Part shown: positions 2,331 through 31,547 of the stretch, one piece after another
Numbering within the stretch: position 1 is the first letter of the stretch
Layout: each line of letters opens with the position of its first letter
Source: a virus
Direction: 5' to 3' (one strand)
UHGV virus genome: UHGV-0071189
Length of the DNA stretch: 35,719 nt
The notes under the pieces: generated by a model
What the model saw: the letters and a program-made list of their open reading frames with translations, nothing else
What the model was told of the DNA's origin: nothing
Database searches by the model: none
Made by a program: the position numbers and the translations under genes

Positions 2331-2350
2331 GGCCGCGTTAGCGGCCTTTC
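2331..2350. terminator. Bidirectional terminator hairpin GGCCGC-GTTA-GCGGCC + TTTC between the cargo gene and D
   Basis: Perfect 6-bp GC stem, 4-nt loop, flanked by A/T-rich sequence; lies between convergent genes. Confidence 0.5.
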
Positions 2351-2399
2351 TAACTATGTTTATTGCTAGTACATATCTGAACTAATACATTTAAGACAT

Positions 2400-3509: not shown

Positions 3510-3666
3510 CTGTTCCCTCCCTGTGCGGCATGGTCGCATGTGCGTGCGGAGGGGGTTACTGCTTTTTGTTGTCGCCGTGGCGGGAGAACGTCGCAGGGGT
3601 GAGATTACGCGCGTGGTGGGTGATGATTGTTGCCGAATCATTTAACGGATACAAGGGGCTGAAGCT

Positions 3667-4851
3667 ATGAGTGAAACTCGTTTTCATGGTGCCCGTGTTA
3701 CGGAAAATACCGACCTGGTAACAGCGATTAACGATGTTGATTCCAGTGTTATCGGTATCGTGGCAACGGCGGATGATGCGGACGCGAAGCTGTTCCCGCT
3801 GAACAAGCCCACACTGCTGACCCGCGTCAATGACGTGCTGGGAAAATGCGGGACAACGGGGACGCTTTATCGTGCGCTTAAGGCCATTGCAGACCAGGTG
3901 AGCACAAAGGTGATCGTCGTTCGCGTGGCTGAACACAAAGAAGAAGACGGAAAGACGCAGGATCAACTGGTTATCGGTGGTTCTGAGGATGACGGCAGCT
4001 ATACGGGGATGTATGCGCTGCTTGTTGCAGAGCAGGATGAAAGCATCGGATACCGTCCGCGTATTCTGGCCGCGCCGGAGCTGGACACGGAGGCTGTAAC
4101 AAAATCCCTGTGCGTGATTGCAGGTAAACTGCGCGCGTTTGTGTATGCCTCATGTTACGGCTGTAACACGATGGCTGAGGCGATTACCTACCGCCAGAAA
4201 TTCAACGAACGTGAGGTGATGCTCTTATGGCCGGACTTCATCGCCTACAACCCGAAAAGTGGCAAAAACGAAACGTTCCCCGCGCCTGCCTATGCGTGCG
4301 GCCTTCGTGCGTACATTGACCATGAGCAGGGATGGCACAAATCATTGTCCAACGTTCCGGTTAAAAATGTGCTGGGGATGTCGAGGCATGTGTTCTGGTC
4401 GTTGCAGGCCGAAGACAGCGATGCCAACAGCCTCAACAACAAAGAAATCACGACCATTATTCGTCGCAACGGGTTCCGCTTCTGGGGCAACCGCACACCG
4501 GAAACGAACGCCTACATCTTTGAGGTGTATACCCGAACCGCACAGGTGCTGGCTGATTCAATTGCGGAAGCGCAGTTTGAAACCATCGACAGTCCACTGA
4601 CGCCTGCGAATGTGAAGGATGTTATCAGTGCCATCAGGGCAAAACTGGATTCGCTGGTTACTGCCGGGAAACTGATTGGTGCGGAGTGCTGGTATGACGT
4701 GGTGGATAACGGCACCACGAATTTACGTCAGGGACGTGTGCGTATTCGCTACAAATATACGCCTGTTCCCCCGCTGGAAGACATGGAGCTTTACCAGACG
4801 TTTACTGATGAATTCTTTGGTCCCGCATTTGCGGTGCTGGGAGGTGCCTGA
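3667..4851 (+). CDS. FI: Tail sheath protein FI
   Basis: FPLNKP, EQGWHKSLSNV, RRNGFRFWGNRT, YTPVPPLE motifs match P2 gpFI; 394 aa. Confidence 0.9.
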   Translation: MSETRFHGARVTENTDLVTAINDVDSSVIGIVATADDADAKLFPLNKPTLLTRVNDVLGKCGTTGTLYRALKAIADQVSTKVIVVRVAEHKEEDGKTQDQLVIGGSEDDGSYTGMYALLVAEQDESIGYRPRILAAPELDTEAVTKSLCVIAGKLRAFVYASCYGCNTMAEAITYRQKFNEREVMLLWPDFIAYNPKSGKNETFPAPAYACGLRAYIDHEQGWHKSLSNVPVKNVLGMSRHVFWSLQAEDSDANSLNNKEITTIIRRNGFRFWGNRTPETNAYIFEVYTRTAQVLADSIAEAQFETIDSPLTPANVKDVISAIRAKLDSLVTAGKLIGAECWYDVVDNGTTNLRQGRVRIRYKYTPVPPLEDMELYQTFTDEFFGPAFAVLGGA

Positions 4852-5363
4852 TGGCTGTACCAAAACATCTTCGCTTTTTTACGTTGTTTGTGGATGGTGA
4901 AAACGAAGTGGGTAAAGTGACATCCGTCACGCCGCCCAAACTGACGCGCAAAACCGACAGCTATCGTGGTGGTGGCATGATGGGGGCGGTAAGTATTGAT
5001 CTCGGTCTGGACGACTCCGCGCTTGATGCGAGTTTTGTCATGGGGGGAGCTGTTCGTGCGCTGTTCCTTAAATATGGCGGCACGATTGACGGCACGCTGC
5101 TGCGTTTTGCGGGTGAATACTACACCGATGCAGAAAGCGATCTGTATGAAATCGAGATGCGTGGGCGTGTGACGGAAATTGATATGGGGGAAGCCAAACA
5201 GGGCGAAGCCACATCACACACTTACGCTGTCAAAAACACCTACTACAAGCTGAGCGTTAACGATCGCCCGCTGTGGGAAATCGACCTGTTGAACCACATC
5301 TACCGGAAGGACGGCAAGGACATTGTGCCTGACCGTATCCGTTCCGCGCTTGGGCTTGGCTGA
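4851..5363 (+). CDS. FII: Tail tube protein FII
   Basis: 170 aa immediately after sheath gene (ATGA-type coupling), size and position of P2 gpFII. Confidence 0.8.
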   Translation: MAVPKHLRFFTLFVDGENEVGKVTSVTPPKLTRKTDSYRGGGMMGAVSIDLGLDDSALDASFVMGGAVRALFLKYGGTIDGTLLRFAGEYYTDAESDLYEIEMRGRVTEIDMGEAKQGEATSHTYAVKNTYYKLSVNDRPLWEIDLLNHIYRKDGKDIVPDRIRSALGLG

Positions 5364-5418
5364 TAAGTAATATGCAGGCTGCGCAGTGCGTCGCCTCTGA
5401 CTGAAAAGGAGACAACTG

Positions 5419-5793
5419 ATGAAAGACATCGATACTGAAACCCGGAATAACACCGTGGCGGATGATGTGACGGCAGGTGAGGATATGACTGTCGAACGTG
5501 GCGTAAAACTGACCCGACCAATTGAGCGTGGTGGCGAAAAAATCACGTATGTGGAGATCACCGGGGCTATTGAGCAGGCTGGATCCCTGCGTGGTCTGTC
5601 GCTGTCTGATGTGCTGAATCTGAAAGCGGATACCATGTTCACGCTGTTGCCTCGCGTGACCTCGCCACGACTGGATGAAGTGATGATTAAAAAAATGTCG
5701 TCACGCGATTTTATTCAGTTGTGCGCTGTGGCTGTAAATTTTATGAGCGAGCCAGACTCTGGCGCGAAGAGCGTGCAGGAGACGGCAGCGTAA
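5419..5793 (+). CDS. E: Tail assembly chaperone E (zero-frame product)
   Basis: GSLRGLSLSDV...LPRVTSP resembles P2 gpE; precedes tape measure gene. Confidence 0.7.
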   Translation: MKDIDTETRNNTVADDVTAGEDMTVERGVKLTRPIERGGEKITYVEITGAIEQAGSLRGLSLSDVLNLKADTMFTLLPRVTSPRLDEVMIKKMSSRDFIQLCAVAVNFMSEPDSGAKSVQETAA

Positions 5794-5957
5794 TCACCCT
5801 GGTGTGCTTTGAGCACATCGAAGATCTGGTGGCGGATATTGCCGCCATTTTTAACTGGTCGCCCGCCGAAATCTTCATGATGACGCCCGGCGAAGTGGTT
5901 AGCTGGCGTGAGCGGGCGGCACTTCGCAGCGGGAATGCAGACAATGAAGACTCTTGA
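5419..5957 (+). CDS. Tail assembly chaperone E+E' made by programmed -1 frameshift (slip at A7 5689..5695 or AAATTTT 5736..5742)
   Basis: -1 frame is open from 5691 and encodes conserved E' C-terminus (VCFEHIEDLV...WRERAALRSGN); two slippery heptamers in the overlap. Confidence 0.55.
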
Positions 5958-8751
5958 CATCCGGGTCGCTTTCAGCGCCGTTGACAGGCTGACCCGGCCT
6001 GCCGAAAACGCCCGCCGCCTGATGGGGCAGTTTGGTGACTCCATCCAGCGAACGCAGGGGGCGATCAAAAATCTCGAGCGTCAGGCGCGTTCATTTGAGC
6101 GCGCCCGTGACGCTGTCAGTAAAGCGGATGCTGGCATATTGAAAGCACGACGCCAGCTTAACGCCCTTAATCAGTTACAACGCACGGGTACAGTGCTCAG
6201 CGAAAAACAACAAAAGCTGATGCAGCAGTTAAGCACCCGGCTTGAACGCCTGAATGAATCGCGCACACGGGAAATTCAGAAAATGCGGGAACTTGGCGGA
6301 GAGCTGAAACGCCACGGCATTTCCCTGACAGGCAGCGATAACACCATCCAGCAGGCCATCAGACGCACCGAACAGTACAACAACCAGCTTGAACGCGAAC
6401 GGCAGGCGCTTGCGCGTGTAACGCGGGCGCGTGAGCGGTATTCGCGCGCGCAGGAAACAGCGGGAAAACTGAAAACAGGTGGTGCGCTGGCAATTGGTGC
6501 GGCAGCGGCGGGCGGCTATGCTGCCGGGCGTTTTTTGCAGCCTGCGATCGGGTTCGGCAAAGAGATGTCCCGCGTTCAGGCACTGACGCGAATCGACAAA
6601 AACAGCCCGCAGTTTAAGGCGCTGCGTGAGCAGGCGTTAAAACTTGGCTCTGAAACACAGTTTACTGCGAGTGATGCCGCCAGTGGGCAGAGCTTTCTGG
6701 CAATGGCTGGGTTTACTCCGCAGGCCATTCAGGCCGCATTGCCCGGTGTTCTTAATATGGCGCTGGCAGGTGGCGTCGAACTCGGCGAGACGGCTGATAT
6801 AGGCTCCAATATCCTCACACAGTTCAACCTGACAGCCGATCAAATGGACCGGGTTGGCGATACGCTGACAGCAGCATTCACCCGGACCAATACTGATTTA
6901 CGCGCGCTGGGCGAAACCATGAAGTATACCGGTCCGGTTGCCGCAAAACTTGGTATCAGTCTTGAAGAAGCGGCGGCCATGGCCGGGATGCTTGCCAATA
7001 ATGGTCTTCGCGGAAGCGATGCTGGTACGGCCATGCGCGCAAGTCTGTCCCGCCTTGCATCACCGCCAAAAGCTGCGGCTGATGCACTGAAAGAGCTGGG
7101 GGTGTCAGTTGCTGACGCCAGAGGCAAAATGCGCCCGATGGAGAATGTGCTGCTTGATCTCTATAAGGCGACACAAAAATACGGACAGGTGGACCAGGTC
7201 TCCTTCTTCAAGGACATCGCCGGAGAAGAGGCGTTCGTTGGTTTGCAGACGCTTGTTGCGGCGGCTGGTTCAGGAGAACTGCAAAAACTGACCAGAGAAT
7301 TGCAGGGGGCAAGGGGAGAGGCCGATCGCGTTGCAAAAGTAATGGCCGATAATCTTGATGGGGACCTGAAAAATCTCGACAGCGCATGGGAAGGTCTTCG
7401 TATTCGCATCAGTGATCTGGTTGACGGTCCGCTGCGTTCTGTCACGCAGTGGCTCACGCGGGTGCTTGAAAAAATCACCTCGCTGGCGCAGGCCCATCCG
7501 GTACTGACGCGCCAGCTACTGATAGCAGGCAGTGCGTTGCTGGCAATGACTGCAACGATTGGCTCGTTGTCGCTGGTTATTGGGGTGCTTTACGGGAAGC
7601 TGGCCACCCTGCGTCTTGGTTTCGACATTCTTACCCGGTCAATGAATGTCATCAGGGTGTTGCCTGCGCTGTGGGGAATGGTGACGGGTTCTGTTTCTTT
7701 GCTGGGAGGCGCTATCGGGGCGCTGTTCAGTCCGGTTGGTCTTATCGTGGCTGCGCTTGCCGGAGCTGCCGTTCTTATCTGGAAATACTGGGATCCCATC
7801 AGGGTATTTTTTGCCGGGGTGTTCAGCGGGATTATGGAAAGGCTGACCCCGTTGCGCGAAACCTTTGAACGGTTTGGTCCTGTTTTTGACGCAATCGGAA
7901 GCGGGATCAGCCAGGTGTTTAACTGGTTTAAATCGCTGCTGTCACCGATGGAGTCCAGCAAGGAAACGCTGGATAAATGTACCAGTGCTGGCGAGATATT
8001 CGGTAACGTTCTTGGCGGTGCGTTACAACTTGTTCTGACACCTGCAAAAATGCTACTGGATACGCTGGCGTGGATACTTGAAAAACTCGGTGTCCTTCCG
8101 GATGAAGCGGAAAGGGCGCGCAAGAAAATCGAAGACGCACAGCGTGCGGCCATTCTTCAGGACAAGGTTGCCTTGCTTCAGGGGGACCTGGCGAAAATCA
8201 ATCCGCCGAAGCCTGTGGAAAATGGCAATGGCACCGGAGGTGATAAACCCAAAGACAACAAACCGCTCACAGACAGCAATACCGGGACGCTACGCAGACT
8301 CAGCAAAATTGCTGATAACACAGGTAAGCTGGTTGATGAGACGAAAAAACGCATTGGCCCCGGCGATATTGTCTTTAAGAACCTGCCCCGCGCACTTGCT
8401 GTTCGTGGGGAGTGGCAGGAGCGGAAGATTGCGCAGGTCAGTAAGCCTGCCCCCGCAATTAATATCACACCCGTGGTCCCGGCTCCGCTGCTTCCGGCGC
8501 TGGTCCCTGTTGTTGCGGCCAGCTCCCGCCCGGTGGCGGAGGCCATACGATCGCCAGTGGCATCAGTTCCTGTAACTTCCCGTAACCGGGAGCCTGTTGC
8601 CTCCGGATTTGGTGGTGAAATTCATGTTCATCTGCATAACGTTGTTACGCAGAATCCCCGCGAACTGGCGAAACTGGTCGGTGAAATGGTCAGGGCAGAA
8701 ATGGAACGGCGCGCCCGTGCCGGGCGTGGCAGTTTTTACGATAAAGATTGA
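5908..8751 (+). CDS. T: Tail tape measure protein T
   Basis: 947-aa protein with coiled-coil N-terminus and Gly/Ala-rich hydrophobic central region, directly after E/E'; GTG start in track, true start may be ATG at 5935 or 5944. Confidence 0.85.
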   Translation: MSGRHFAAGMQTMKTLDIRVAFSAVDRLTRPAENARRLMGQFGDSIQRTQGAIKNLERQARSFERARDAVSKADAGILKARRQLNALNQLQRTGTVLSEKQQKLMQQLSTRLERLNESRTREIQKMRELGGELKRHGISLTGSDNTIQQAIRRTEQYNNQLERERQALARVTRARERYSRAQETAGKLKTGGALAIGAAAAGGYAAGRFLQPAIGFGKEMSRVQALTRIDKNSPQFKALREQALKLGSETQFTASDAASGQSFLAMAGFTPQAIQAALPGVLNMALAGGVELGETADIGSNILTQFNLTADQMDRVGDTLTAAFTRTNTDLRALGETMKYTGPVAAKLGISLEEAAAMAGMLANNGLRGSDAGTAMRASLSRLASPPKAAADALKELGVSVADARGKMRPMENVLLDLYKATQKYGQVDQVSFFKDIAGEEAFVGLQTLVAAAGSGELQKLTRELQGARGEADRVAKVMADNLDGDLKNLDSAWEGLRIRISDLVDGPLRSVTQWLTRVLEKITSLAQAHPVLTRQLLIAGSALLAMTATIGSLSLVIGVLYGKLATLRLGFDILTRSMNVIRVLPALWGMVTGSVSLLGGAIGALFSPVGLIVAALAGAAVLIWKYWDPIRVFFAGVFSGIMERLTPLRETFERFGPVFDAIGSGISQVFNWFKSLLSPMESSKETLDKCTSAGEIFGNVLGGALQLVLTPAKMLLDTLAWILEKLGVLPDEAERARKKIEDAQRAAILQDKVALLQGDLAKINPPKPVENGNGTGGDKPKDNKPLTDSNTGTLRRLSKIADNTGKLVDETKKRIGPGDIVFKNLPRALAVRGEWQERKIAQVSKPAPAINITPVVPAPLLPALVPVVAASSRPVAEAIRSPVASVPVTSRNREPVASGFGGEIHVHLHNVVTQNPRELAKLVGEMVRAEMERRARAGRGSFYDKD

Positions 8752-9960: not shown

Positions 9961-10656
9961 CTCGGCACAAGCGGGGAGAAAATACCGTTACTCAGTACAG
10001 CGAATACCTGGACTAATCGACAAACATTCAGCGGTGGCCTTTCTGGGGAACTGTCCGGCAATGCCGCTACTGCAACAAAGTTGAAAACAGCACGAAAAAT
10101 TGCTGGAGTTGGTTTTGATGGTTCTAGCGATATTTCAATTAGTGCCAAAAATGTCAATGCATTTGCACTCCGACAAACAGGTAATACTGTTAATGGTGAT
10201 ACATCCGTTGGATGGAATTGGGATAGTGGTGCATATAACGCCCTGATTGGTGGTGCATCTGCATTAATTCTTCACTTTAATATAAATGCTGGTAGCTGTC
10301 CTGCCGTACAATTCCGTGTGAATTATAAAAATGGTGGCATTTCCTACAGGTCGGCTCGTGATGGTTATGGGTTTGAATTAGGTTGGTCAGATTTCTATAC
10401 CACGACACGAAAACCTTCAGCGGGAGATGTTGGTGCATATACGCAGGCAGAATGTAACTCAAGGTTTATTACAGGTATTCGCCTTGGCGGCCTGTCATCT
10501 GTTCAGACATGGAATGGTCCCGGCTGGTCTGACAGGTCAGGTTATGTCGTTACGGGTTCAGTTAACGGAAACCGTGATGAATTAATTGATACAACACAGG
10601 CAAGGCCAATTCAGTATTGCATTAATGGGACGTGGTATAACGCGGGGAGTATTTAA
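9949..10656 (+). CDS. Alternative tail-fibre C-terminal coding segment (Hv'), silent in this orientation; no start codon of its own
   Basis: Frame open from just inside the gix site (stop TAA at 9940..9942 lies outside); encodes fibre-like sequence ...NAATATKLKTARKIAGVGFDGSSDIS... Confidence 0.7.
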   Translation, partial: GLRELGTSGEKIPLLSTANTWTNRQTFSGGLSGELSGNAATATKLKTARKIAGVGFDGSSDISISAKNVNAFALRQTGNTVNGDTSVGWNWDSGAYNALIGGASALILHFNINAGSCPAVQFRVNYKNGGISYRSARDGYGFELGWSDFYTTTRKPSAGDVGAYTQAECNSRFITGIRLGGLSSVQTWNGPGWSDRSGYVVTGSVNGNRDELIDTTQARPIQYCINGTWYNAGSI

Positions 10657-10658
10657 CG

Positions 10659-11192
10659 ATGATGCACTTAAAAAACATTACTGCTGGCAACCCTAAAACA
10701 AAAGAGCAATACCAGCTAACAAGGCAATTTAACATCAAATGGCTTTATTCAGATGATGGAAAAAACTGGTATGAGGAACAAAAGAATTTCCAGCCAGACA
10801 CTTTGAAAATGGTCTATGACCATAACGGCGTTATTATTTGTATTGAAAAGGATGTTTCAGCAATTAATCCGGAAGGCGCAAGCGTCGTTGAATTACCTGA
10901 TATTACAGCAAATCGCCGGGCTGATATTTCGGGGAAATGGATGTTCAAAGATGGCGTAGTGATAAAGCGAACTTATACCGAGGAAGAGCAGAGGCAACAA
11001 GCGGAAAATGAAAAGCAAAGCCTGTTGCAACTTGTCAGGGATAAAACCCAGCTATGGGACTCACAGCTACGGCTGGGCATCATTTCCGACGAGAATAAAC
11101 AAAAATTAACCGAGTGGATGCTCTATGCGCAGAAAGTCGAATCTACAGACACCTCCAGCCTGCCAGTAACGTTTCCCGAACAACCAGAATGA
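10659..11192 (+). CDS. Alternative tail fibre assembly protein (Tfa'), paired with the silent fibre tip
   Basis: 177 aa, same family and about half identical to the expressed Tfa at 11221..11748 (shared [28 protein letters not shown]). Confidence 0.8.
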   Translation: MMHLKNITAGNPKTKEQYQLTRQFNIKWLYSDDGKNWYEEQKNFQPDTLKMVYDHNGVIICIEKDVSAINPEGASVVELPDITANRRADISGKWMFKDGVVIKRTYTEEEQRQQAENEKQSLLQLVRDKTQLWDSQLRLGIISDENKQKLTEWMLYAQKVESTDTSSLPVTFPEQPE

Positions 11193-11195
11193 GAG

Positions 11196-11215
11196 AAGGC
11201 CCGATATTGGGCCTT
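11196..11215. terminator. Hairpin AAGGCCC-GATATT-GGGCCTT between the two convergent tfa genes (bidirectional terminator)
   Basis: Perfect 7-bp GC-rich stem between convergent stop codons. Confidence 0.5.
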
Positions 11216-11220
11216 AATTT

Positions 11221-11748
11221 TTACTCAGGCTTTTGTGGCCATTCGGGATTTGCTGTATCCACACGGCTGACCAGAACGCTGTAGCGTTCCCATGACTCCA
11301 GTCGTGTGCGTTCCTCATCCGTCGCCATATTCAGCCTGACAGCGCGTTCCAGTGGCTGAATAACGCTTTCAGCTTCAGAAAGCAACGCGACCTTTTGTGA
11401 TTCGGCCTGTTGTTGCTGTTCGTCTGCTGTATAAATCCGCTTAACCACAGTTCCGTCCTTAAACATCCACTTCCCTGAATCATCGGCACGACGATTGGCT
11501 GTTATATCTGGAATCTCAACGACACTAAAGCCTTCGGGATTAAGCGTTGAGGCATCTTTGGTTATGGCAACAATAATATTATTTTCGTCGTATACAATCT
11601 TTATGGTGTCGTCCTGAAAGTTATTTACTTCCTCATACCAGTTTTTACCGTCTTCGGACCATAACCAGATAACATCAAAATTCTTTGTTAGCTGATATTG
11701 TTCTTTTGTTTTTGGATTTCCGGACTTAATATTTTTTAAATGCTGCAT
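11221..11748 (-). CDS. G: Tail fibre assembly protein G (expressed orientation)
   Basis: 175 aa directly downstream of H; Tfa-family motifs. Confidence 0.85.
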
Positions 11749-22313: not shown

Positions 22314-24065
22314 ATGATTCAGGACGCTTTTGTGCGCCAGCGTGCGCGACAACTTTACTGGCAGGGTTATCCGCCCGCAGAAATATCACGTCTGATGGGA
22401 ATAAACCCGAACACGATTTATGCGTGGAAAAAACGCGACCAGTGGGATGAAACGCCACCCGTGCAGCGTGTCACGCAGTCCATCGATGCGCGCCTCATCC
22501 AGCTCACTGAAAAACAGAATAAAACAGGTGGTGACTTCAAGGAAATAGACCTGCTGACCCGGCAGCTTAAAAAACTGCATGATGGCCAGCCGGATGCGAC
22601 GGCCACAGGAAAGAAAGGCCGGGCGAAAAAACTCAAAAATCATTTCACGCCGGAACAGATTGCCGCACTGCGGGAAAAAATCATCAGCAGGCTGGAGTGG
22701 CATCAGCGGGGCTGGTTTGACTCCCTGACCCTTTGCAGGGAAGCCGGGATACGTAACAGGATGATCCTGAAATCCCGACAGATTGGGGCGACCTGGTATT
22801 TTGCACAGGAAGCACTGCTGATGGCGCTGCGTGACGATGTGGCGCAACCTTACCAGCGTAACCAGATTTTTTTGTCTGCGTCGCGTCGTCAGGCGTTCCA
22901 GTTTAAAAGCATTATTCAGAAGGCTGCGGCTGAAGTTGATGTGGAGCTGAAAGGGGGCGATAAAATCATCCTCTCCAACGGCGCAGAGCTGCATTTTCTC
23001 GGCACTTCTGCTGCGTCGGCGCAGTCCTATACGGGCAATTTTTATTTTGATGAATTTTTCTGGGTCAGTCGCTTTGCTGAACTGCGCAAGGTGGCTGGCG
23101 CTATGGCAACCCTCAGCGGACTGCGGCGCACCTACTTCTCCACGCCATCCACCGAAACGCACGAAGCATACGCCTACTGGAACGGCGACCGCTGGAACGA
23201 GAAAAAGGCCACGCATAAACGCCAGCGTTTTTCTGTGGACTGGAAAACGCTGCATAACGGGCTTATCTGCCCTGACCGGACGTGGCGGCAAATTGTCACG
23301 CTGGAAGATGTGGTTAATCACGGCTGGAAACACACCGATATCGACGAAATTCGTGATGAAAACACCGAAGACGAGTTCCTCAATCTCTATATGTGTGAGT
23401 TTGTCCGCGAAGGGGAATCGGCATTTAACCTGAATATCCTGATTGGCTGCGGTGTTGACGGATACGACGACTGGAAAGACTGGAAACCTTTTGCTCCCCG
23501 CCCGATGGGGAATCGTCCGGTATGGATTGGGTATGACGCAAACGGCAGCAGTGGCAACGGCGACAGCGGCGCTGTGTCCGTGGTGGTTCCTCCGGCTGTT
23601 CCTGGTGGCCGTTTTCGAACGGTGGAGACGCGACGCGTTCAGGGGCTGGAGTTTGAAGAACAGGCCAGAGTCATTGAAGATTTCACGTATCGCTACAACG
23701 TGGAACACATCGGCATTGATGTGACGGGCGGGAACGGGGAGGCTGTTTATCAGATAGTGAAACGGTTTTTCCCTGCCGCTATTCCGTACACCTTCACGCT
23801 GTCATCAAAACGGTCGCTGGTACTGAAAATGCTGCAAATAATGCGTGCCGGGCGGTGGGAATACGATCGCGCCGAACGCGAGCTGGTCGCGGCCTTTAAC
23901 GCCGTGCGTAAGGTGAAAACACCGGGCGGCTTTATCACTTACGAAACGGACCGCGCGAGGGGGATCAGCCACGGCGACCTTGCGTGGGCAACCATGCTTG
24001 CTGTCATTAACGAACCAATTGGCGGCGAAGGAGAAAACGAGCGTTTCACGGTTATGGAGTTCTGA
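22314..24065 (+). CDS. P: Terminase large (ATPase) subunit P
   Basis: 583 aa; N-terminal HTH-like segment, central ATPase and C-terminal nuclease regions; divergent from O as in P2. Confidence 0.85.
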   Translation: MIQDAFVRQRARQLYWQGYPPAEISRLMGINPNTIYAWKKRDQWDETPPVQRVTQSIDARLIQLTEKQNKTGGDFKEIDLLTRQLKKLHDGQPDATATGKKGRAKKLKNHFTPEQIAALREKIISRLEWHQRGWFDSLTLCREAGIRNRMILKSRQIGATWYFAQEALLMALRDDVAQPYQRNQIFLSASRRQAFQFKSIIQKAAAEVDVELKGGDKIILSNGAELHFLGTSAASAQSYTGNFYFDEFFWVSRFAELRKVAGAMATLSGLRRTYFSTPSTETHEAYAYWNGDRWNEKKATHKRQRFSVDWKTLHNGLICPDRTWRQIVTLEDVVNHGWKHTDIDEIRDENTEDEFLNLYMCEFVREGESAFNLNILIGCGVDGYDDWKDWKPFAPRPMGNRPVWIGYDANGSSGNGDSGAVSVVVPPAVPGGRFRTVETRRVQGLEFEEQARVIEDFTYRYNVEHIGIDVTGGNGEAVYQIVKRFFPAAIPYTFTLSSKRSLVLKMLQIMRAGRWEYDRAERELVAAFNAVRKVKTPGGFITYETDRARGISHGDLAWATMLAVINEPIGGEGENERFTVMEF

Positions 24066-25111
24066 TGAGCAGAAAAAATAAAAAAGTGCGCATGAGTTCA
24101 CGCATTGATCTCGCTGATGCACTCAGGAAAGAATCGTCGCTCAGCGCATTCACTTTTGATGGTCCTTATCGCCTGACCGGGCATGATTTGCTGGACAATA
24201 TGTACTGTGCTGATAACGGGCGGTGGTATGAAACCCCGGTGGACTGGTACGGTCTGGCAAGAGCCGCCCGGCAAACGTCCTGGCATCAGTCTGCGCTTTA
24301 CTTTAAGCGCAATGTATTGCTCGGTTGCTACATCCCGCACCCGCTGCTTTCCCGGCAGGATTTCTCGGCGCTGGCGCTGGACTGGTTTGTGTTCGGTAAC
24401 GCATTCCTTGAGCTTCGAAGCAATATGCTCGGCGAACCGCTTAAATTACAGCACGCCCTGGCGAAATACATGCGACGCGGAAGCGATCTTGAATCATGGT
24501 GGTATGTGCAGGATGGCAAGGACGCGTTTCAGTTTCGCCCAGGCAAAGTGTGCCACCTGATGAATCCTGACATTAACCAGGAAATCTACGGCATGCCGGA
24601 ATATCTCGGCGCATTACTCTCGGCCAGCCTGTCTCATTCGGCGGACATGTTCAGAAAACTGTATTACGACAACGGATCCCACGCCGGGTGCATCATCTAC
24701 ATCGGTGCAGCGCAGGTAAACCGCGAAAGCATGGACTCCCTGAAAGAAACGCTACAGGGTGCGCGTGGTGGTGGTGCGTTTAAAAACGTGCTCATTCATG
24801 CGCCCAACGGGGGCAAAGAGGGGGTGCAAATTTTGCCGTTCCAGCAGATCGCCGCAAAGGATGAGTTCATGAATGTTAAGGCGGCATCCCGTGATGATGT
24901 GCTGGCTGCGCACCGCGTTCCGCCGCAACTGATGGGGGCGATGCCGGGTGAAAAAAGTGCGTTTGGTGATGTGGAGAAGGCCGCGCGGGTTTACGCAATT
25001 AACGAGCTGATGCCCGTCATGGAGGCCATGAAGCATATCAATGACTGGCTTGGCGAAGAGGTGATCCGATTTAACCCTTACGCACTGTTAGACACCCAGC
25101 CCACATCCTGA
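24065..25111 (+). CDS. Q: Portal (capsid vertex) protein Q
   Basis: 348 aa immediately after P with ATGA overlap; P2 gpQ size and position. Confidence 0.85.
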   Translation: MSRKNKKVRMSSRIDLADALRKESSLSAFTFDGPYRLTGHDLLDNMYCADNGRWYETPVDWYGLARAARQTSWHQSALYFKRNVLLGCYIPHPLLSRQDFSALALDWFVFGNAFLELRSNMLGEPLKLQHALAKYMRRGSDLESWWYVQDGKDAFQFRPGKVCHLMNPDINQEIYGMPEYLGALLSASLSHSADMFRKLYYDNGSHAGCIIYIGAAQVNRESMDSLKETLQGARGGGAFKNVLIHAPNGGKEGVQILPFQQIAAKDEFMNVKAASRDDVLAAHRVPPQLMGAMPGEKSAFGDVEKAARVYAINELMPVMEAMKHINDWLGEEVIRFNPYALLDTQPTS

Positions 25112-25162: not shown

Positions 25163-25589
25163 ACTCTCCAGCTCCTGTATCAATCAGATAATTTCACGAC
25201 GTCTTCCAGCTTATCGCCATCATCGACGGTCAGGCTCTTACGCAATCCCACTGCGCTGACTGCATGTTCTCGCCGCCTCAGTGCGATTTTGACGGCCTTA
25301 TCTGCTACCCCATCAAATCAAAAGTCCTCACGTCTTTTTCATGCTCAGCGTGAGAAATACAGCCATTCTGTTGTGTCGCTGCGACATCGTTCAGGGGATG
25401 CTATTTACCCCCTGAAACGCGGGCTGTTCCCCCGTCACCTGCGCGCAGAAAAAACGCGTTTTTTTGTGCACGCACGGATCCTTGACGGATCCAGTCGCCA
25501 CGCGGGCCGGAAGGGCAAAAAGTCGTTCAAAAAAATTATGCAAATTTGTGCACTATTGTGCAGATGCTGCGGATTATCTCGAAGCCATA

Positions 25590-25617
25590 TTGTGTATTAG
25601 CAAGTGATATGTATACT
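25590..25617 (+). promoter_or_regulatory. Candidate sigma70 promoter of the cargo operon (-35 TTGTGT, 16-bp spacer, -10 TATACT)
   Basis: Hexamers read directly, about 40 bp upstream of GTG start at 25660; not verified. Confidence 0.3.
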
Positions 25618-25659
25618 TTGCAATGAAGTAGTATAGATGTTTGTTAAGTAAGGTGAATT

Positions 25660-27036
25660 GTGAAAAAAATAGATAAAAAGGATGCAAGAAAACGCTTTTT
25701 ACGTGGTTGGATTCGCTTTTTAAAAGGCGTTGAGAGAAAAAATAAAAGAAGAATTAAATATAAAGCCTATGAAAGGTTACATTTTTCTGACGAAGTAACA
25801 CCAGTGAAAAGTCAGGTGGCTACTTTTATTGAAAGTATTTCATCCGTAAAGAAATATGATACTGCAACTCTTCGTCGCAAAGAAGATAGAATAATAATAC
25901 CTAAATATTTCGATTTGTTTGATCATCCAGAAAAATCTCTTTTGTTTATTCATGGTGTAACTAGATTGATTGCCAGGGGTAAACGTAAATCATATTTGCT
26001 TGATTATACTAAAAATAAAAAGCATTGTTTAGGTGCGGAATGTCTCCTTGGTGTTGCACTGAGCTCAGCCAAACGTCACAATATAAATTTAAAAGATGCT
26101 CAAGTACAACTTAATGGCATTTATCCGAAGGATGAAAAATATTTAGAAATTATTCGTGACATCGGGTTGGTTAAAGAAATAAATAAAGTGACGCCAGGGA
26201 AGGTGCATGATGAAACAGAAAAATCGAAAAAAGATAACCCTAAGAAAAGAATATTCTCTGCTGATAGTATCGGCAAGGAAAATGCGTCTGCATTTGCACA
26301 AGATACCAAAAATAGAATGTCTGAGAAATTCACTAATTATATAAACGAGTGTCTAAGTGATCATCAATTAAAATTAGTTAGCAAGGCAGAAAACCATCTA
26401 ACATCTTGCATGGGCGAATTACTTGATAATGCAGAGAGACATTGTGGGCTTGAGCAGCGTCCGCGTTGGTATTTGAGGGGGTTTGTAAATAATGGCTTAA
26501 AACAGCCAACATGTGAAATAGCTGTTTTTAACTTTGGAAAAACTATTGATGAAACTTTTTCAGGACTTTCTTTAGAACATTATTCATATAACAATCACAT
26601 AATCCCTTATGTGGAAAAACACATAAATAAAAAAGGGATGTTTAGAGAAGGTTTGATTACAGTCGCTGCTTTGCAGGGGCGGGTTAGTTGTAAAAATGAA
26701 ACGGAGACAGATAGTTCTGGTACGGGAACCATTGAACTATTGAAGTTTTTCCAGGATATGCATGATAGTTTAAAAGAACTATCCAAAGAACTAAGTGGAA
26801 ACATCAGAATGTCTTTAATTTCTGGATGCACACATATAAACTTTGATGGTTCTTATAAGTTGAAAAAGCAAACGTTAGATAACCAAAGTGACAAATTCAC
26901 TTATCCATTTAATAATACAGGGCTTGAATCTGAACCAGATCGTACCTATCTTAAGTGTATGCAGAAAGCCCGTTTTCCGGGAGTTATGATTAATATACGT
27001 TTTCCTTTACCGGAAAATGCAACTCAAAGAACCTGA
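25660..27036 (+). CDS. Cargo operon gene 1: 458-aa Lys-rich protein with possible GHKL / anti-sigma-factor-kinase-like ATP-binding motifs
   Basis: GTG start with AAGGTG RBS; ELLDNAERH (N-box-like, about residue 253), NFGKT and SGTGT at G1/G2-like spacing; AT-rich; family assignment is motif-based only. Confidence 0.6.
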   Translation: MKKIDKKDARKRFLRGWIRFLKGVERKNKRRIKYKAYERLHFSDEVTPVKSQVATFIESISSVKKYDTATLRRKEDRIIIPKYFDLFDHPEKSLLFIHGVTRLIARGKRKSYLLDYTKNKKHCLGAECLLGVALSSAKRHNINLKDAQVQLNGIYPKDEKYLEIIRDIGLVKEINKVTPGKVHDETEKSKKDNPKKRIFSADSIGKENASAFAQDTKNRMSEKFTNYINECLSDHQLKLVSKAENHLTSCMGELLDNAERHCGLEQRPRWYLRGFVNNGLKQPTCEIAVFNFGKTIDETFSGLSLEHYSYNNHIIPYVEKHINKKGMFREGLITVAALQGRVSCKNETETDSSGTGTIELLKFFQDMHDSLKELSKELSGNIRMSLISGCTHINFDGSYKLKKQTLDNQSDKFTYPFNNTGLESEPDRTYLKCMQKARFPGVMINIRFPLPENATQRT

Positions 27037-27047
27037 GGAATAGGTAA

Positions 27048-27392
27048 ATGAAAATGGCAAATATTTATATAGATTTCAATAAATTAGTTAAAGATGGCGG
27101 CAAGAAATTATTTGCTGGGCGTGATAATGGTCGCAAGGCATATAGTTTCTTTGGCATAGATCGCTTTACTTTTGATAACAATGATAGGATTTTTCTATCA
27201 ATTCCGAATGGTGTGGTTGTGTCAAGCTCATACTTTTTGGGTATGCTAGAGAATATATTGCCTCTTTTTTCATCTCCGAATGAATTTTATAGCAGAACAT
27301 CTTTAGATGGAGTGAATTATAAAGAAGGAATGCTTTCTGAGCTGGATAGGGCTGTGAGAAGAGGATTACATCGAAATGTTCCGTTCTTCTGA
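27048..27392 (+). CDS. Cargo operon gene 2: 114-aa protein, possible STAS-like (anti-sigma-factor antagonist-like) domain
   Basis: GAGGA RBS overlapping gene 1 stop; RIFLSIPNGVVVSSSYFLGML resembles the DSSG.L phosphorylation loop of STAS proteins; speculative. Confidence 0.55.
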   Translation: MKMANIYIDFNKLVKDGGKKLFAGRDNGRKAYSFFGIDRFTFDNNDRIFLSIPNGVVVSSSYFLGMLENILPLFSSPNEFYSRTSLDGVNYKEGMLSELDRAVRRGLHRNVPFF

Positions 27393-28167
27393 TTTGTGCT
27401 CTGTTTTTAAAATGACAGCATTGCCTGTCATTTTTTTTGTTAATATATCCGCTTGCTCTGCGACATATCCAGAAAGAACCGCGTCTAACATGGATTCGCA
27501 AAATTCAGAGTCTCACGTAATAGAACCAAAGAGTGGAAACATTTTTAATGCTGATATATGCATTGGAAAAAATAGCGATCTAAAATTATGCAATAGTTAT
27601 GAAAGGAAGTTTACACCGCACCTTCTTTATGATAAACCTGATAATTATGTTCTGAATGGATATTACCCCTCAACCTCATCGGGGAATCTCTATAATATCG
27701 TTAGAGTTCCTGAATCAGGACCTGAATGGTACTCTATAGCAATTTCAATTATTGCGCTAATTGCATCTGTAGGAGTTCCTTTGTGGCAGCATTATAAAGG
27801 AAGAAATGAAGCTATAAACGAAGGGTATTGGTTACGAGAAGTTATTCTCCCTAAAATTAATGGATTAGCTTTTGAAGTTACGGAAGATTTTAAGGATGCG
27901 ATGGGGCTTCCCCCTGATGAATTTATATCATTACTAGATAGCCAACTATTTTCAAAGCTTGGGGAGTTAAGGGATTCATTATATCTATTTAAGGGTTTTT
28001 CTAAGTTGGAAAAAGATATTGAGTCACTTGATGGTATCTGTGATTTATTTGAGCAAAAGGTTTCTGATAATATTGATTCATCTATTGATACAAGGATTTC
28101 TGATGTATCAATCTTTCATGCTAGCTTAATAAGGGAGCTCATGAAAATGCATAGAAAAATAGGGTGA
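27376..28167 (+). CDS. Cargo operon gene 3: 263-aa predicted lipoprotein/membrane protein (candidate effector)
   Basis: N-terminal signal peptide with ISAC lipobox; internal hydrophobic helix WYSIAISIIALIASVGVPLW; overlaps gene 2 by 17 nt. Confidence 0.55.
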   Translation: MFRSSDLCSVFKMTALPVIFFVNISACSATYPERTASNMDSQNSESHVIEPKSGNIFNADICIGKNSDLKLCNSYERKFTPHLLYDKPDNYVLNGYYPSTSSGNLYNIVRVPESGPEWYSIAISIIALIASVGVPLWQHYKGRNEAINEGYWLREVILPKINGLAFEVTEDFKDAMGLPPDEFISLLDSQLFSKLGELRDSLYLFKGFSKLEKDIESLDGICDLFEQKVSDNIDSSIDTRISDVSIFHASLIRELMKMHRKIG

Positions 28168-28201
28168 TTGTCTATGTTTAATATATCGAAATAATATTAT
28201 T

Positions 28202-28232
28202 GTTGTGGGTTTGAAAATACCAAGCCCACAAC
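28202..28232. terminator. Imperfect hairpin GTTGTGGGTTTG-loop-CAAGCCCACAAC between the convergent cargo operon and gene A
   Basis: 12-bp stem with one mismatch, seen directly; AT-rich flanks. Confidence 0.35.
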
Positions 28233-28377
28233 CGAAATAATATCAGATTGCTTTTTTTATATAAATAATGTGTTAATGTTATTGCTATTTGCACGTGCAT
28301 GATTAATTGTGTTGAATACTTGTTGTGTCTTGGTTTGTCGACATTGCTTATACTTATTATTAATTTTTACCCATCCA

Positions 28378-31161
28378 CTACTCTTTATTTCTATTGTTTA
28401 ACCAAGACTGTAGAAGGTCAGCTTTGCGGCGTACATGCTTTGTGGTTGCACTGATGCGTTGTGCGTGCTCTGCGTCGCGGATGGCGCGCAGCATGTCAGA
28501 AAGCACGGTAACGGGTGTTTTCATGGTGTTCTGGTCCTGCTGAAGTGTGGATGCCAGGCGTGCGGCGGCTTCAGGGTCTGATGCCCCCAGCTGTGCCAGA
28601 TAGCTGGCGACCGGGTTATGGCGGATCTCCGTGCTGCTTACGCCATGATTACGGCTCAGGCGCTGCCAGAGCTGCGTGATTCGGCTGTCCGGGCGGGTAT
28701 CCGGTTTGCGTACAATTTCAAATCCCTGCGGTGCAATGATGCTGCCGTCAACGTACAGACTGCCGCCCCGTAACAGGTGCTGCATCTGTTGTTCACCGAT
28801 ATGCAGGCCGAGAGATTCAGCAGACTCCCGCCATTCTTTAGCGAGTAATTCGTGGTTATCAGGCAAAGGCCGCTGCTGTTTGCGGCTCTGTGTCCAGCTC
28901 TGCATTTCATCACTGCTGTTTTTTGCCTGTTTGTCACGAAGCGAACGCATCAGCGCCCGGCGTTCGTGCCGTTTCAGTGAGCGCATCCATTCGTTCACTT
29001 CAACGCCGTCAGGGAGCTGCGGCCACGGTGCTGGCCGTTCTTCCGGCTGTTCTGTCCCGTTGTTGTCCGTTTCCTGTACACGGGGACAGTTATTGCCACG
29101 AGTCCAAGGGGCGGCAGGGCCGCCCTGAAGGTCAAAACCATTTTCGCGGGCGCTGTCTTCCGCTTCCGGTTTGCGTCTTACCAGCTTCCAGTTATCCGGA
29201 TGCGTGCATACGCGGGAAGACTCCCCAATGAGCGGCGACCAGATCCCGTAAATCTGTACGCTCTGTTCGCCGTAATCATTCAGCTCATCTGCGAGGTCGT
29301 AGGCGGTGCGAATCAGGTAGTCTTTGCGTGGAACAAGCACGCCACCCTGTTTCTCAATGTAGGTGGCAAAACACCCGGCATCAGCGGCAGCGAGTACCGC
29401 ATCCATTGCGTCATCCTTCAGCCGTTGCGGGCCTTCCGGGTTGCGTGCCATCTGGCTGGCAAGGCGGCGTAGTTCACGCCACACCTGACGGGAGGGGATG
29501 CCAAAGAACTGGAACTGGCGGACCCGGTGAAGGCGCGCCCAGCCGATGGCGCGCTCCACGCTCTCGGCCATTGATTTTCCGGTTTCGTGGTCAACGCGTG
29601 GCTTGCCCGTTTTCGGGTCGATGCCATCTACGGCGCGGCTGTCCAGGTTTTTTCCGATGTAGGTCGCGATATAGCTGGTTGGTGTGCCTTTTGAGCCGTC
29701 GACGTACTCCGCCTTAAAGCGCGGAGTAATATCATTACCCAGCTCGTGGCGGTCTTCCTGAATGGCAATATCGCGGGTGATGGCCACGATGCTGTCGATT
29801 TCTTCCGGATGAGCAAAGACCATCATATGCCAGTGCACGGTGCCGTCATGGTGAGGCTCCACCGTGCGGATGCCATACCAGCGAAGACCGTCGCGGTTCA
29901 GTTTTTTGCGGACTGCCGCAAAAAACGTGTTAACCAGGTAATCGCTGGAGTCGCGCATGGTGGCCCCGTTCCATTTGGGATTCGGATGACCGTTCTCTGT
30001 TGTGGCGTGGTATTTTGACGGGCAGGTGACAGTCAGAAACACCGCTTTGTCGCCACGGGCTTCGGCCAGAAGTTCCAGCCCCTTCATGGTGGCCATCATT
30101 TCTGCCTTACGGTGAACCGGGTTACTTACTCCCGCGTAATACACTGTCTCGAGATCAATCGTGAACCCGTCTTCGTTTTCCAGCATGAAACTTTTCAGGA
30201 AATCGCGTGTTTTCTCGCGCTGTGCGCGAAACTCGCTTAACGCGTCCTGGCTCAGATAGGGCGATGTTTTTCTGGAAACCAGACAGGCGGCGCGGAGTTG
30301 TTCTTCTCTCCACTCGCAACGTAACAGCCACAGTTTGCGTTTCCACCATTCCGCACAGGTCAGGCGAAGGATTGCGCCCGGCAGCAGCTCCGTGTCCGGT
30401 TCGTTCCTCCGGTCTTTGTCTGTTGTCAGTGCGTCATAATGTGGAGGTATGGCGTGCAGGTGTAACGCCATGCGGGCCAGCATCTGATACGCCTTCAGCG
30501 TTACATCCATGGTCAGTTCGCCATCAGTCGCGCCAAAGCCATCGCAGAGTTTTTCGAAGGTGCTGCTGAACATCGCCGCCGTCATGGTGGCCAGCGTCTG
30601 TATCTGGTGTTTGTTGAGCTGCGGCAGGTAAAGCAAATCGTCCAGGCGTTCGCGTCCGGCAAGGGAGCGATAACCCGGTGTCAGCCAGCGGTGATCGGTG
30701 CGGTCCAGACGTTCGAATATTTTGCGCAGGGTTCCGCGCGCGTAGCGTTCAGCCTGCCAGCTCTTTTGGCCTTTCTGGCGATCGGCTTCCTGTTTTTTGC
30801 GCAGGAAAGAGAGGTGGCGGCTCAGAGGTTCACGCAGATAAACGGGAAGCACCTTCAGTGTGGCAAAAGCACGGGCCACCGGGTCTTGTTCTGTTGCCTG
30901 ACGCTTGCTGATGATGCTTTGTGCCAGCTTTTCACGCTGTCCGGCTTCCTCAAGGGATGCCATGAGTTTTTTACCCACGGTGGATTGTGCGAAAAAGGCT
31001 TCCTCCTTCGCTTCCTGTTCTTCCAGAGCCTTTTTGTCTGCCTCAAGGTAGTAACGGATGGCGCGTTGCAGGTCGGTTTCAGTTTCCTGCCTGTGCTCCG
31101 TAAATCTGGCCGGATCAATGGCTGGCCGTGGTTCATTCCAGCTCCATGCAAACTCACTCAT
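28378..31161 (-). CDS. A: Replication initiation protein A (rolling-circle initiator/endonuclease)
   Basis: Large early protein with HWHMMVF and YIATYIGK (Y-x3-Y active-site-like) motifs; start at 31161 overlaps upstream stop (ATGA); track start 31188. Confidence 0.8.
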   Translation of the reverse strand: MSEFAWSWNEPRPAIDPARFTEHRQETETDLQRAIRYYLEADKKALEEQEAKEEAFFAQSTVGKKLMASLEEAGQREKLAQSIISKRQATEQDPVARAFATLKVLPVYLREPLSRHLSFLRKKQEADRQKGQKSWQAERYARGTLRKIFERLDRTDHRWLTPGYRSLAGRERLDDLLYLPQLNKHQIQTLATMTAAMFSSTFEKLCDGFGATDGELTMDVTLKAYQMLARMALHLHAIPPHYDALTTDKDRRNEPDTELLPGAILRLTCAEWWKRKLWLLRCEWREEQLRAACLVSRKTSPYLSQDALSEFRAQREKTRDFLKSFMLENEDGFTIDLETVYYAGVSNPVHRKAEMMATMKGLELLAEARGDKAVFLTVTCPSKYHATTENGHPNPKWNGATMRDSSDYLVNTFFAAVRKKLNRDGLRWYGIRTVEPHHDGTVHWHMMVFAHPEEIDSIVAITRDIAIQEDRHELGNDITPRFKAEYVDGSKGTPTSYIATYIGKNLDSRAVDGIDPKTGKPRVDHETGKSMAESVERAIGWARLHRVRQFQFFGIPSRQVWRELRRLASQMARNPEGPQRLKDDAMDAVLAAADAGCFATYIEKQGGVLVPRKDYLIRTAYDLADELNDYGEQSVQIYGIWSPLIGESSRVCTHPDNWKLVRRKPEAEDSARENGFDLQGGPAAPWTRGNNCPRVQETDNNGTEQPEERPAPWPQLPDGVEVNEWMRSLKRHERRALMRSLRDKQAKNSSDEMQSWTQSRKQQRPLPDNHELLAKEWRESAESLGLHIGEQQMQHLLRGGSLYVDGSIIAPQGFEIVRKPDTRPDSRITQLWQRLSRNHGVSSTEIRHNPVASYLAQLGASDPEAAARLASTLQQDQNTMKTPVTVLSDMLRAIRDAEHAQRISATTKHVRRKADLLQSWLNNRNKE

Positions 31162-31547
31162 GGCTGGTATCCCGTCACGCGCTGCCACTCCTGCGAGAAG
31201 AGGGCAGAAAGGCGGTTAAATTCAGCGGTGTATTCACTCAGCGAGGCACACCCGCCAGCAGTGCGATGCGCCAGCATTGCCGCAAATACGGAGGCCGGGG
31301 AGTCGTAATACGCCAGCAGTGATTCTCCGTGTGGTGTCAGGCAGTGCAACGCCAGCCCGTGTGGTGTGAAGTCCACGCGGTAGCAGTCGTCTACTGTGAA
31401 ATAAAGGGTGTCTGCATTCTCCGGTTTTGTGGTGCGTGCTCTGTTGTCACGACCACGGATGTAGAGATCAAATAATCGCTGAAGAACGGGAGCCAGACGG
31501 GTGTCCTGTGTGCGCACCCATCTTGTGAAGTCATGAGCGTCAATCAT
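31158..31547 (-). CDS. Hypothetical early protein (129 aa)
   Basis: ORF translationally coupled to A; no recognisable motif. Confidence 0.5.
   Translation of the reverse strand: MIDAHDFTRWVRTQDTRLAPVLQRLFDLYIRGRDNRARTTKPENADTLYFTVDDCYRVDFTPHGLALHCLTPHGESLLAYYDSPASVFAAMLAHRTAGGCASLSEYTAEFNRLSALFSQEWQRVTGYQP

Follow-up and report, generated by a model that had tools for sequence, protein, structure and literature searches.

In the vapKSC operon described by Chambers et al. (EMBO J 2026, PMC13373217) the kinase VapK phosphorylates VapS on Ser48, which frees the PIN toxin VapC, and the operon confers ~2 logs of protection against phage Bas42. The same report covers CapK, a kinase of HTH-STAS-GHKL architecture (HTH, helix-turn-helix) that single-stranded DNA (ssDNA) activates and that phosphorylates CapS, a STAS protein with a winged helix-turn-helix (wHTH) domain; for VapK, activation by ssDNA was inferred (PMC13373217). 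In the literature on defence systems built from STAS proteins and kinases this was the sole relevant report we found, and a GHKL match in a Vibrio paper proved to be an unrelated Shedu variant. Here we compare these systems with a three-gene cassette in the virus genome UHGV-0071189 (35,719 nucleotides; this whole stretch of DNA is referred to as the window). The cassette is inserted between the portal gene Q and the replication gene A, a region defined as the P2 old/tin defence hotspot by Rousset et al. 2022 (PMC9122126), and VapKSC is its closest characterised relative. Both are three-gene operons of the same order, with a STAS + GHKL kinase, a STAS-type protein (in the cassette a probable one) of ~115 amino acids (aa) carrying a conserved Ser, and an effector or its candidate, and both are found on mobile elements or in defence-island contexts. 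Because parts and order match apart from the type of effector, we favour the reading, with a probability of roughly 0.5, that the cassette is a VapKSC-like three-component sensor of stress or phage, which would act by abortive infection through a membrane effector and is carried as P2-hotspot cargo. The features of the three genes are as follows (ORF, open reading frame; TM, transmembrane):

25660-27036, + strand: gene 1, ORF of 458 aa with a GTG start
aa 6-35 of gene 1: basic N-terminal helix, a single long helix in the AlphaFold2 model
25882-26274, + strand: STAS-like domain of gene 1 (~aa 75-205)
~aa 215-450 of gene 1: SpoIIAB/RsbW-like GHKL domain
26416-26442, + strand: N box ELLDNAERH of gene 1 (E253, N257, H261), aligned with VapK E156/N160/H164
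26530-26544, + strand: variant G1 box NFGKT of gene 1 (N291-T295, Asn291 replacing the canonical Asp), aligned with VapK D190-F-G-V-G
26719-26730, + strand: G2 box GTGT of gene 1 (G354, G356), within SGTGT, aligned with VapK G237/G239
27048-27392, + strand: gene 2, ORF of 114 aa
27222-27230, + strand: Ser59-Ser60-Ser61 of gene 2, with Ser61 as predicted phospho-acceptor
27376-28167, + strand: gene 3, ORF of 263 aa
27445-27456, + strand: lipobox I-S-A-C of gene 3 (Cys27)
27724-27801, + strand: TM helix of gene 3 (aa 117-142), from hydropathy and the AlphaFold2 helix
27826-27852, + strand: juxtamembrane signature YWLREVILP of gene 3

These three ORFs are real genes and not chance frames, since homologues at 35-77% identity occur in other genera and the gene order recurs at 27 of 28 independent loci. 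The 28 loci were sampled from metagenomes and IMG/VR and span kinase identities from 100% to ~21%. At the 27 loci that keep the order, a protein of 103-119 aa comes after the kinase and a third one, of 180-315 aa, comes next; a TM helix was detected in this third protein at all but one of them (26/27).

Kinase, partner protein and membrane protein

Gene 1 combines a STAS-like with a GHKL domain and is of the VapK/CapK/SpoIIAB type. Its AlphaFold2 model, for which 39 homologues served as input, is confident (predicted local distance difference test, pLDDT, 84; predicted template modelling score, pTM, 0.84), has the Bergerat fold of the GHKL superfamily and matches SpoIIAB/RsbW in structure. Homology to VapK was found with hhalign, in which a profile of 189 gene 1 sequences and a VapK alignment were matched over 281 columns covering both STAS and GHKL parts (probability 90%, E 1.6e-6), with the N, G1 and G2 boxes in register. 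The sequences of VapK and VapS were taken from the AlphaFold 3 files of PMC13373217, and the VapK alignment comprised three sequences, with homologues from Rahnella and Deinococcus added; relatives of VapK were obtained at one locus from a genome scan and at two from a plasmid search. When the profiles were compared with VapK and VapS as single sequences the results were non-significant (E 0.09 and 0.15; hidden Markov model scores within those of shuffles). No sequence match was found for gene 1 or its profile among PDB chains, and none for gene 1 by tblastn against 50,697 deposited phage genomes.

Among the 189 relatives E253 and N257 of the N box, Q339 in the region of the ATP lid, G293, G354 and G356 are all invariant, and H261 is kept in 188. 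Gene 1 thus has the N box of GHKL proteins with catalytic Glu and Mg-binding Asn, in the E-x3-N-x3-H spacing of SpoIIAB-type kinases, and a G2 box of the form G-x-G-x in the ATP lid. The G1 box does not conform to D-x-G-x-G: position 291 is N in 169 relatives, S in 15, D in 3 and another residue in 2, and the second Gly is replaced by T or S. VapK and the kinase of a P4-hotspot system treated below retain DxGxG, unlike gene 1, and judging from the aligned relatives the substitution at position 291 is a family-wide oddity of gene 1 kinases. A preliminary description of this DNA had read gene 1 as a GHKL kinase with boxes of the RsbW-SpoIIAB type. The domain, the N and G2 boxes and the fold bear this out, and homology to VapK adds to it, but the motif taken for the G1 box lacks the canonical Asp and the protein's own STAS-like domain had been overlooked.

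Gene 2 is probably a STAS-like, DUF4325-related partner or substrate protein, as far as its sequence can tell. Its homologues form 39 clusters; close relatives have in common the motifs LFAGRxNG and VSSSYFLGxLE and the tail RAVxRGLxxNxPFF. The VSSSYFLG loop with its SSS triplet is invariant among these close relatives, and across 18 diverse loci Ser61 is the sole invariant serine of the triplet. In hhalign comparisons of gene 2 with VapS and the STAS proteins of the P4 hotspot (E 0.012-0.13) Ser61 is aligned with VapS Ser48, and in a weak PDB match of the gene 2 profile (E 0.21) with the Ser of the antagonist TM1081. Anchored on the 'LG' of helix 2, it presumably also corresponds to SpoIIAA Ser58. 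Matches to DUF4325, the 'STAS-like domain' of Pfam, are below threshold and were obtained in only 3 of 10 distant gene 2 relatives. In the table of Rousset et al. a 75%-identical gene 2 homologue belongs to a system labelled 'HATPase_c' and 'DUF4325', and the second label presumably refers to this homologue (PMC9122126). The loop had earlier been likened to the STAS antagonist phosphorylation loop, and of this the invariant serine at the VapS/SpoIIAA phosphosite holds up while the alignments behind it are weak.

Next to VapKSC, whose order and, the effector aside, parts it shares, the cassette differs in several respects. Its kinase exceeds VapK by ~150 aa, with a basic extension at the N-terminus, Asn stands for the Asp of the G1 box and the ssDNA-stacking Phe of VapK is not conserved; gene 2 resembles VapS weakly and misses the DUF4325 threshold, which VapS passes with 2.7e-17. 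The third gene of VapKSC encodes a PIN nuclease, and PIN genes are also carried by the Deinococcus and Rahnella vapKSC loci, whereas gene 3 gave no PIN match and encodes a predicted bitopic membrane protein with a four-helix bundle in place of a VapC-like toxin. On plasmid P5 of Deinococcus gobiensis (positions 2333-4179 of our locus L035) we noted a full vapKSC-type operon, with genes for an ATP-binding protein, a STAS-like domain protein and a PIN domain protein, preceded by an HTH regulator and near GIY-YIG nuclease genes; it extends VapKSC to plasmids of Deinococcota.

The pair CapK-CapS resembles genes 1 and 2 in that a STAS + GHKL kinase is followed by a STAS protein, in the cassette a probable one, with a conserved Ser, the site of phosphorylation in CapS and the predicted one in gene 2. 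On account of this shared architecture genes 1 and 2 might be taken for a CapK/CapS-type transcriptional regulator that induces a neighbouring immune operon after DNA damage, which we regard as very improbable. CapS represses transcription through its wHTH and CapK has an HTH; gene 2 has only 114 aa, with a short conserved tail and no winged-helix domain after the STAS part, and at its N-terminus gene 1 has one basic helix and no HTH. The output of CapK-CapS is an operon, that of the cassette a dedicated third gene, and beyond the linked membrane protein only the convergent gpA gene comes next. Since gene 2 lacks the wHTH and gene 1 the HTH, identity with a CapKS regulator was rejected. From SpoIIAB-SpoIIAA and RsbW-RsbV the cassette differs in that it lacks a sigma factor partner as well as a phosphatase gene, its kinase contains a STAS-like domain of its own and the module is mobile prophage cargo.

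Gene 3 is the candidate effector and is predicted, from sequence and structure model, to be a bitopic inner-membrane protein. AlphaFold2 and hydropathy give the order lipoprotein-type signal, variable periplasmic segment, TM helix and cytoplasmic four-helix bundle. In 15 close homologues Cys27 is invariant and is followed by a variable segment of ~90 aa, the sequence VPESGPEW, the TM helix and a conserved C-terminal half. The signal ends in the bacterial lipoprotein pattern [LVI][ASTVI][GAS]C, by which lipidation is predicted, and in the table of Rousset et al., whose methods name Phobius, protein 3 of the homologous system is credited with a signal peptide (PMC9122126). Lipoprotein signal and internal TM helix had both been noticed in the preliminary description and are confirmed by the ISAC lipobox with its invariant Cys27 and by the one TM helix found. 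The Cys27 lipobox is absent from distant relatives, some of which (e.g. locus L002) have no periplasmic segment at all and retain the TM helix and the cytoplasmic bundle. Right after the TM helix the motif [FY]Wx[RK]xx[ILVF]xP is present in 14 of 18 diverse loci, which indicates that the third genes are homologous and that their conserved part is cytoplasmic. The only conserved parts of gene 3 are thus the TM helix, the WxRxxIxP motif and the four-helix bundle, and the bundle has no match to any known family.

That the periplasmic part of gene 3 is its most variable one, as under diversifying selection, and that the protein contains no toxic domain would also suit a circuit wired the other way round. 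Gene 3 would then sense perturbation of the envelope during adsorption or injection through its lipid-anchored periplasmic segment and TM helix, gene 2 would be a partner-switching antagonist, and gene 1 would be the output, phosphorylating host or phage targets or sequestering a partner in an anti-sigma-like manner, perhaps as a non-catalytic binder. The structural match of gene 1 to SpoIIAB/RsbW agrees with such a role, as the classical members of that group sequester a partner besides phosphorylating it, and the Asn at the G1-box Asp position in most relatives would fit an ATP-dependent activity that is altered or lost. We nevertheless think this arrangement unlikely. Distant relatives without a periplasmic segment place the conserved business end of gene 3 in the cytoplasm, the catalytic Glu, the Mg-binding Asn and the G2 glycines, invariant in all 189 sequences, argue for nucleotide chemistry in gene 1, none of the linked genes encodes a sigma factor or another output, and in the one characterised relative, VapKSC, the third gene is the effector.

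Cargo of the P2 hotspot and its catalogued relatives

The neighbours of the cassette are:

22314-24065: terminase gene, upstream of the cassette
24065-25111: portal gene (Q), upstream of the cassette
28378-31188, - strand: replication endonuclease gpA, downstream of the cassette and convergent to it

The G+C content over 25501-28500, where the cassette lies, is 0.33-0.36 against 0.52-0.60 in both flanks. Gene 1 is preceded by the Shine-Dalgarno sequence AAGGTG (25649-25654), the ribosome-binding site of gene 2, GAGGA, contains the gene 1 stop codon (TGA, 27034-27036), and 17 nt (27376-27392) are common to genes 2 and 3. The AT-rich composition, the tight packing and the position at the P2 tin/old locus had all been pointed out before and agree with our values and with the published hotspot (PMC9122126). 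As a variable AT-rich insert between Q and A of a P2-like phage the cassette has the character of cos-proximal P2-hotspot cargo; the P2 cos 19-mer was not found in the window with up to 3 mismatches allowed, and the cos region is here presumed.

Among 5426 complete E. coli genomes the Q-to-A flank was located in 1107. Only 33 of these 1107 contain the cassette family, 9 with the exact cassette and 24 more with a 71%-identical version, so that the slot is variable and the cassette is its cargo; a near-universal presence in related prophages, which would have spoken against the earlier proposal, was not observed. Every E. coli copy inspected sits between portal and gpA, and the copies are always annotated as three times 'hypothetical protein'. 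Alongside a third cassette variant (positions 2840-8182 of our locus L034, E. coli 23CRST027) the hotspot also accommodates partition genes of the ParM/StbA type and two more small ORFs, which shows that a single slot can take up several stacked cargo modules. Copies with 50-100% kinase identity are mostly located between portal and gpA homologues, even where these have only 50-70% (portal) and ~30% (gpA) identity, and more distant copies adjoin type III restriction-modification (R-M) genes and integrases.

Among the systems catalogued by Rousset et al. the cassette family is P2-hotspot system 19, listed in Table S5B as 'HATPase_c' and 'DUF4325' with 155 occurrences and without remark; for protein 3 the entry gives a signal peptide and 1 TM (PMC9122126). 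Genes 1 and 2 share 70-75% identity with the first two proteins of system 19, its third protein is of the same type as gene 3, and Table S5A holds the exact accessions of genes 1 and 2 of the window (PMC9122126). 'Undescribed', as the cassette had been called, was therefore too strong a word for something of which a 70%-identical version stands in a published table. Table S1B contains a further relative, P4-hotspot system 69, again 'HATPase_c' and 'DUF4325' together with a TM protein (PMC9122126). Its plan likewise has three parts, the last of them a small TM protein, and the system 69 kinase reached 16.1 bits with the gene 1 profile, compared with ≤4.5 for 100 shuffles (hhalign E 0.0014); by these sequence scores it is an intermediate between gene 1 and VapK. 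System 69 differs from the cassette in its canonical DxGxG G1 box, in a STAS partner that passes DUF4325 (2.5e-14), in a third protein without WxRxxIxP and in its location in a satellite hotspot instead of the P2 hotspot.

Old, Tin and Rst_3HP are found in the same Q-to-A slot, and Rst_3HP also consists of three 'hypothetical' genes, but none of them shows sequence similarity to the cassette. Identity with the validated Rst_3HP ('hp + hp + hp', pFR109) was considered and rejected because its proteins differ, by eye, in length and sequence. Peptide searches of the Rousset tables gave no window protein among the tested systems (PMC9122126). Direct scans of the three proteins, gene 1 included, yielded no family in PADLOC, Pfam or NCBIfam, and PADLOC-DB v2.0.0, which includes Old, Tin, PARIS and the candidate PDC systems, gave no match at E up to 0.1. 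In PHROGs there were two matches only, both to families of 'unknown function', and the three proteins are absent from those parts of the DefensePredictor paper and its supplements that were accessible. The earlier statement that the cassette has no similarity to named systems thus holds for Old and Tin and for direct scans of Pfam, NCBIfam and PADLOC, but not for VapKSC (PMC13373217), to whose kinase the deep profile ties gene 1 by hhalign. The cassette has thus been listed before and has a relative among the named systems; what sets it apart from VapKSC is the candidate membrane effector. The family itself is large: 1,359 clusters at 50% identity, as a lower bound, matched the gene 1 profile. 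The best 150 listed kinase clusters are mostly ~400-500 aa long, with some shorter fragments.

The P2 hotspot also holds cargo other than defence systems, namely partition systems (~1/4 of loci) and a cytolethal distending toxin, and only 3 of 8 additional cloned systems gave protection (PMC9122126). In such company the cassette might be something that is not primarily anti-phage, either an addiction or stress module of the toxin-antitoxin type that stabilises the prophage or a lysogenic conversion function acting on the host envelope. One cassette variant does adjoin ParM/StbA genes, and VapKSC responds to a general DNA-damage signal according to its authors (PMC13373217). We give this explanation a low probability: the related VapKSC operon protects against phage (PMC13373217), distant copies of the cassette lie beside R-M genes, and its presence is patchy, with 33 of 1107 slots occupied.

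Proposed switch and its weak points

If the cassette is, as we favour, a VapKSC-like sensor with a membrane effector, the course of events could be as follows. In the uninfected cell the gene 2 protein would keep the cytoplasmic bundle of gene 3 inactive, and the hairpin at the start of gene 3 described below may hold effector synthesis low or tie it to the translation of gene 2. Infection would produce a cue, which is ssDNA in the case of CapK and presumably also in that of VapK; binding of nucleic acid would suit the strongly basic helix at the N-terminus of gene 1. The cue would switch on the kinase, which would phosphorylate gene 2 at Ser61, and the phosphorylated gene 2 protein would release the gene 3 protein, which might then oligomerise and damage or depolarise the inner membrane. 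The infected cell would be halted in this way before phage release, as in abortive infection. A defence role also suits the locus, since of 8 additional systems cloned from the P2 hotspot 3 gave protection (PMC9122126), and the linkage of distant copies to R-M genes and the patchy presence in the E. coli slot point the same way.

A number of observations weigh against this scheme. The G1-box Asp touches adenine in other GHKL proteins, and its loss abolishes ATP binding in GyrB and Hsp90; with Asn or Ser in its place in 184 of 189 members of the gene 1 family, an ATP-dependent kinase activity of gene 1 is uncertain. F54 of VapK, the proposed ssDNA-stacking residue, is aligned with the variable K121 of gene 1, the sequence tie of gene 2 to DUF4325 and VapS is weak (E 0.005-0.15), gene 3 has no recognisable toxic domain, and a consensus promoter scan gave no + strand site upstream of gene 1. 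System 19, finally, is a catalogue entry with HHpred labels that appears neither in Table S2 nor in the tested set (PMC9122126). The partner-switching-like module with membrane effector that had originally been proposed is largely upheld as a reading: the kinase, the TM protein and their linkage are borne out, while the STAS identity of gene 2 is weakly supported.

A bolder version of the VapKSC-like reading, which we put forward tentatively and consider possible rather than probable, would make the cassette one member of a large unannotated family of three-gene immune systems. These would combine a VapK-like kinase with a rewired nucleotide pocket (Asn for Asp, possibly for another nucleotide or mode of action), a STAS partner that is phosphorylated, a single-pass membrane effector of a new type and hairpin-gated synthesis of the latter. 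If the cassette defends, the kinase-STAS switch known from CapKS and VapKSC would be a modular trigger of general use, which could be wired to differing killing devices, in this case a membrane protein without known relatives, and which prophages would trade by way of the P2 hotspot. Annotation by Pfam, NCBIfam, PADLOC and RefSeq misses the family, and naming it would annotate many genomes. The near-universal change from Asp to Asn in the pocket poses the biochemical question of which nucleotide, if any, is used, and the candidate effector encoded by gene 3 offers a new and simple membrane-acting module for study.

Nucleic-acid elements and other features of the window

Three elements in and around the cassette may bear on its expression:

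25590-25595 and 25612-25617, + strand: possible weak promoter, -35 TTGTGT and -10 TATACT with a 16-nt spacer, seen by eye and of low confidence
27408-27435, + strand: hairpin of 11 pairs with a U-run to 27443, a terminator-scan match that encloses the in-frame ATG of gene 3 Met13
28202-28232: inverted repeat GTTGTGGG / CCCACAAC between the convergent gene 3 and gpA, read from the sequence

The hairpin was aligned in 7 diverged loci, where 94.8% of cells are paired and 4 pairs carry compensatory changes, the value for shuffles being 0.8 (1/500). This conservation is suggestive only, since it rests on seven sequences and the same bases are under coding constraint. Judged by its position, the hairpin (27408-27443) may be an attenuator into gene 3 or may couple translation of gene 3 to that of gene 2. 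Just 5' of the possible gene 1 promoter there is a direct repeat, TTGTGCA-N4-TTGTGCA (25548-25566), which could be an operator or a chance occurrence in a short stretch. The inverted repeat at 28202-28232 is a possible terminator, of low confidence, and did not pass the terminator scan. Further on in the AT-rich spacer past gene 3 lies a hydrophobic ORF of 51 aa (28299-28454, + strand) that overlaps the 3' end of gpA; it is present in identical copies of the locus only and is probably not a gene.

Away from the cassette, the window contains a second island of low G+C content (1001-2500, 0.33-0.36) with a single ORF of 389 aa (1139-2308, + strand). The ORF matches DUF3800 of Pfam (E 3.5e-10), gave no PADLOC match and may be a further gene of this prophage with an accessory or defence role. 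By eye we take the flanking ORFs, both on the - strand, to be Ogr-like (646-906) and gpD-like (2400-3641). A stretch of lower G+C content at 10081-11748 comprises a C-terminal piece of a tail fibre (gp37_C) and two oppositely oriented genes for tail-fibre assembly (Caudo_TAP), a layout that resembles a switchable host-range cassette.

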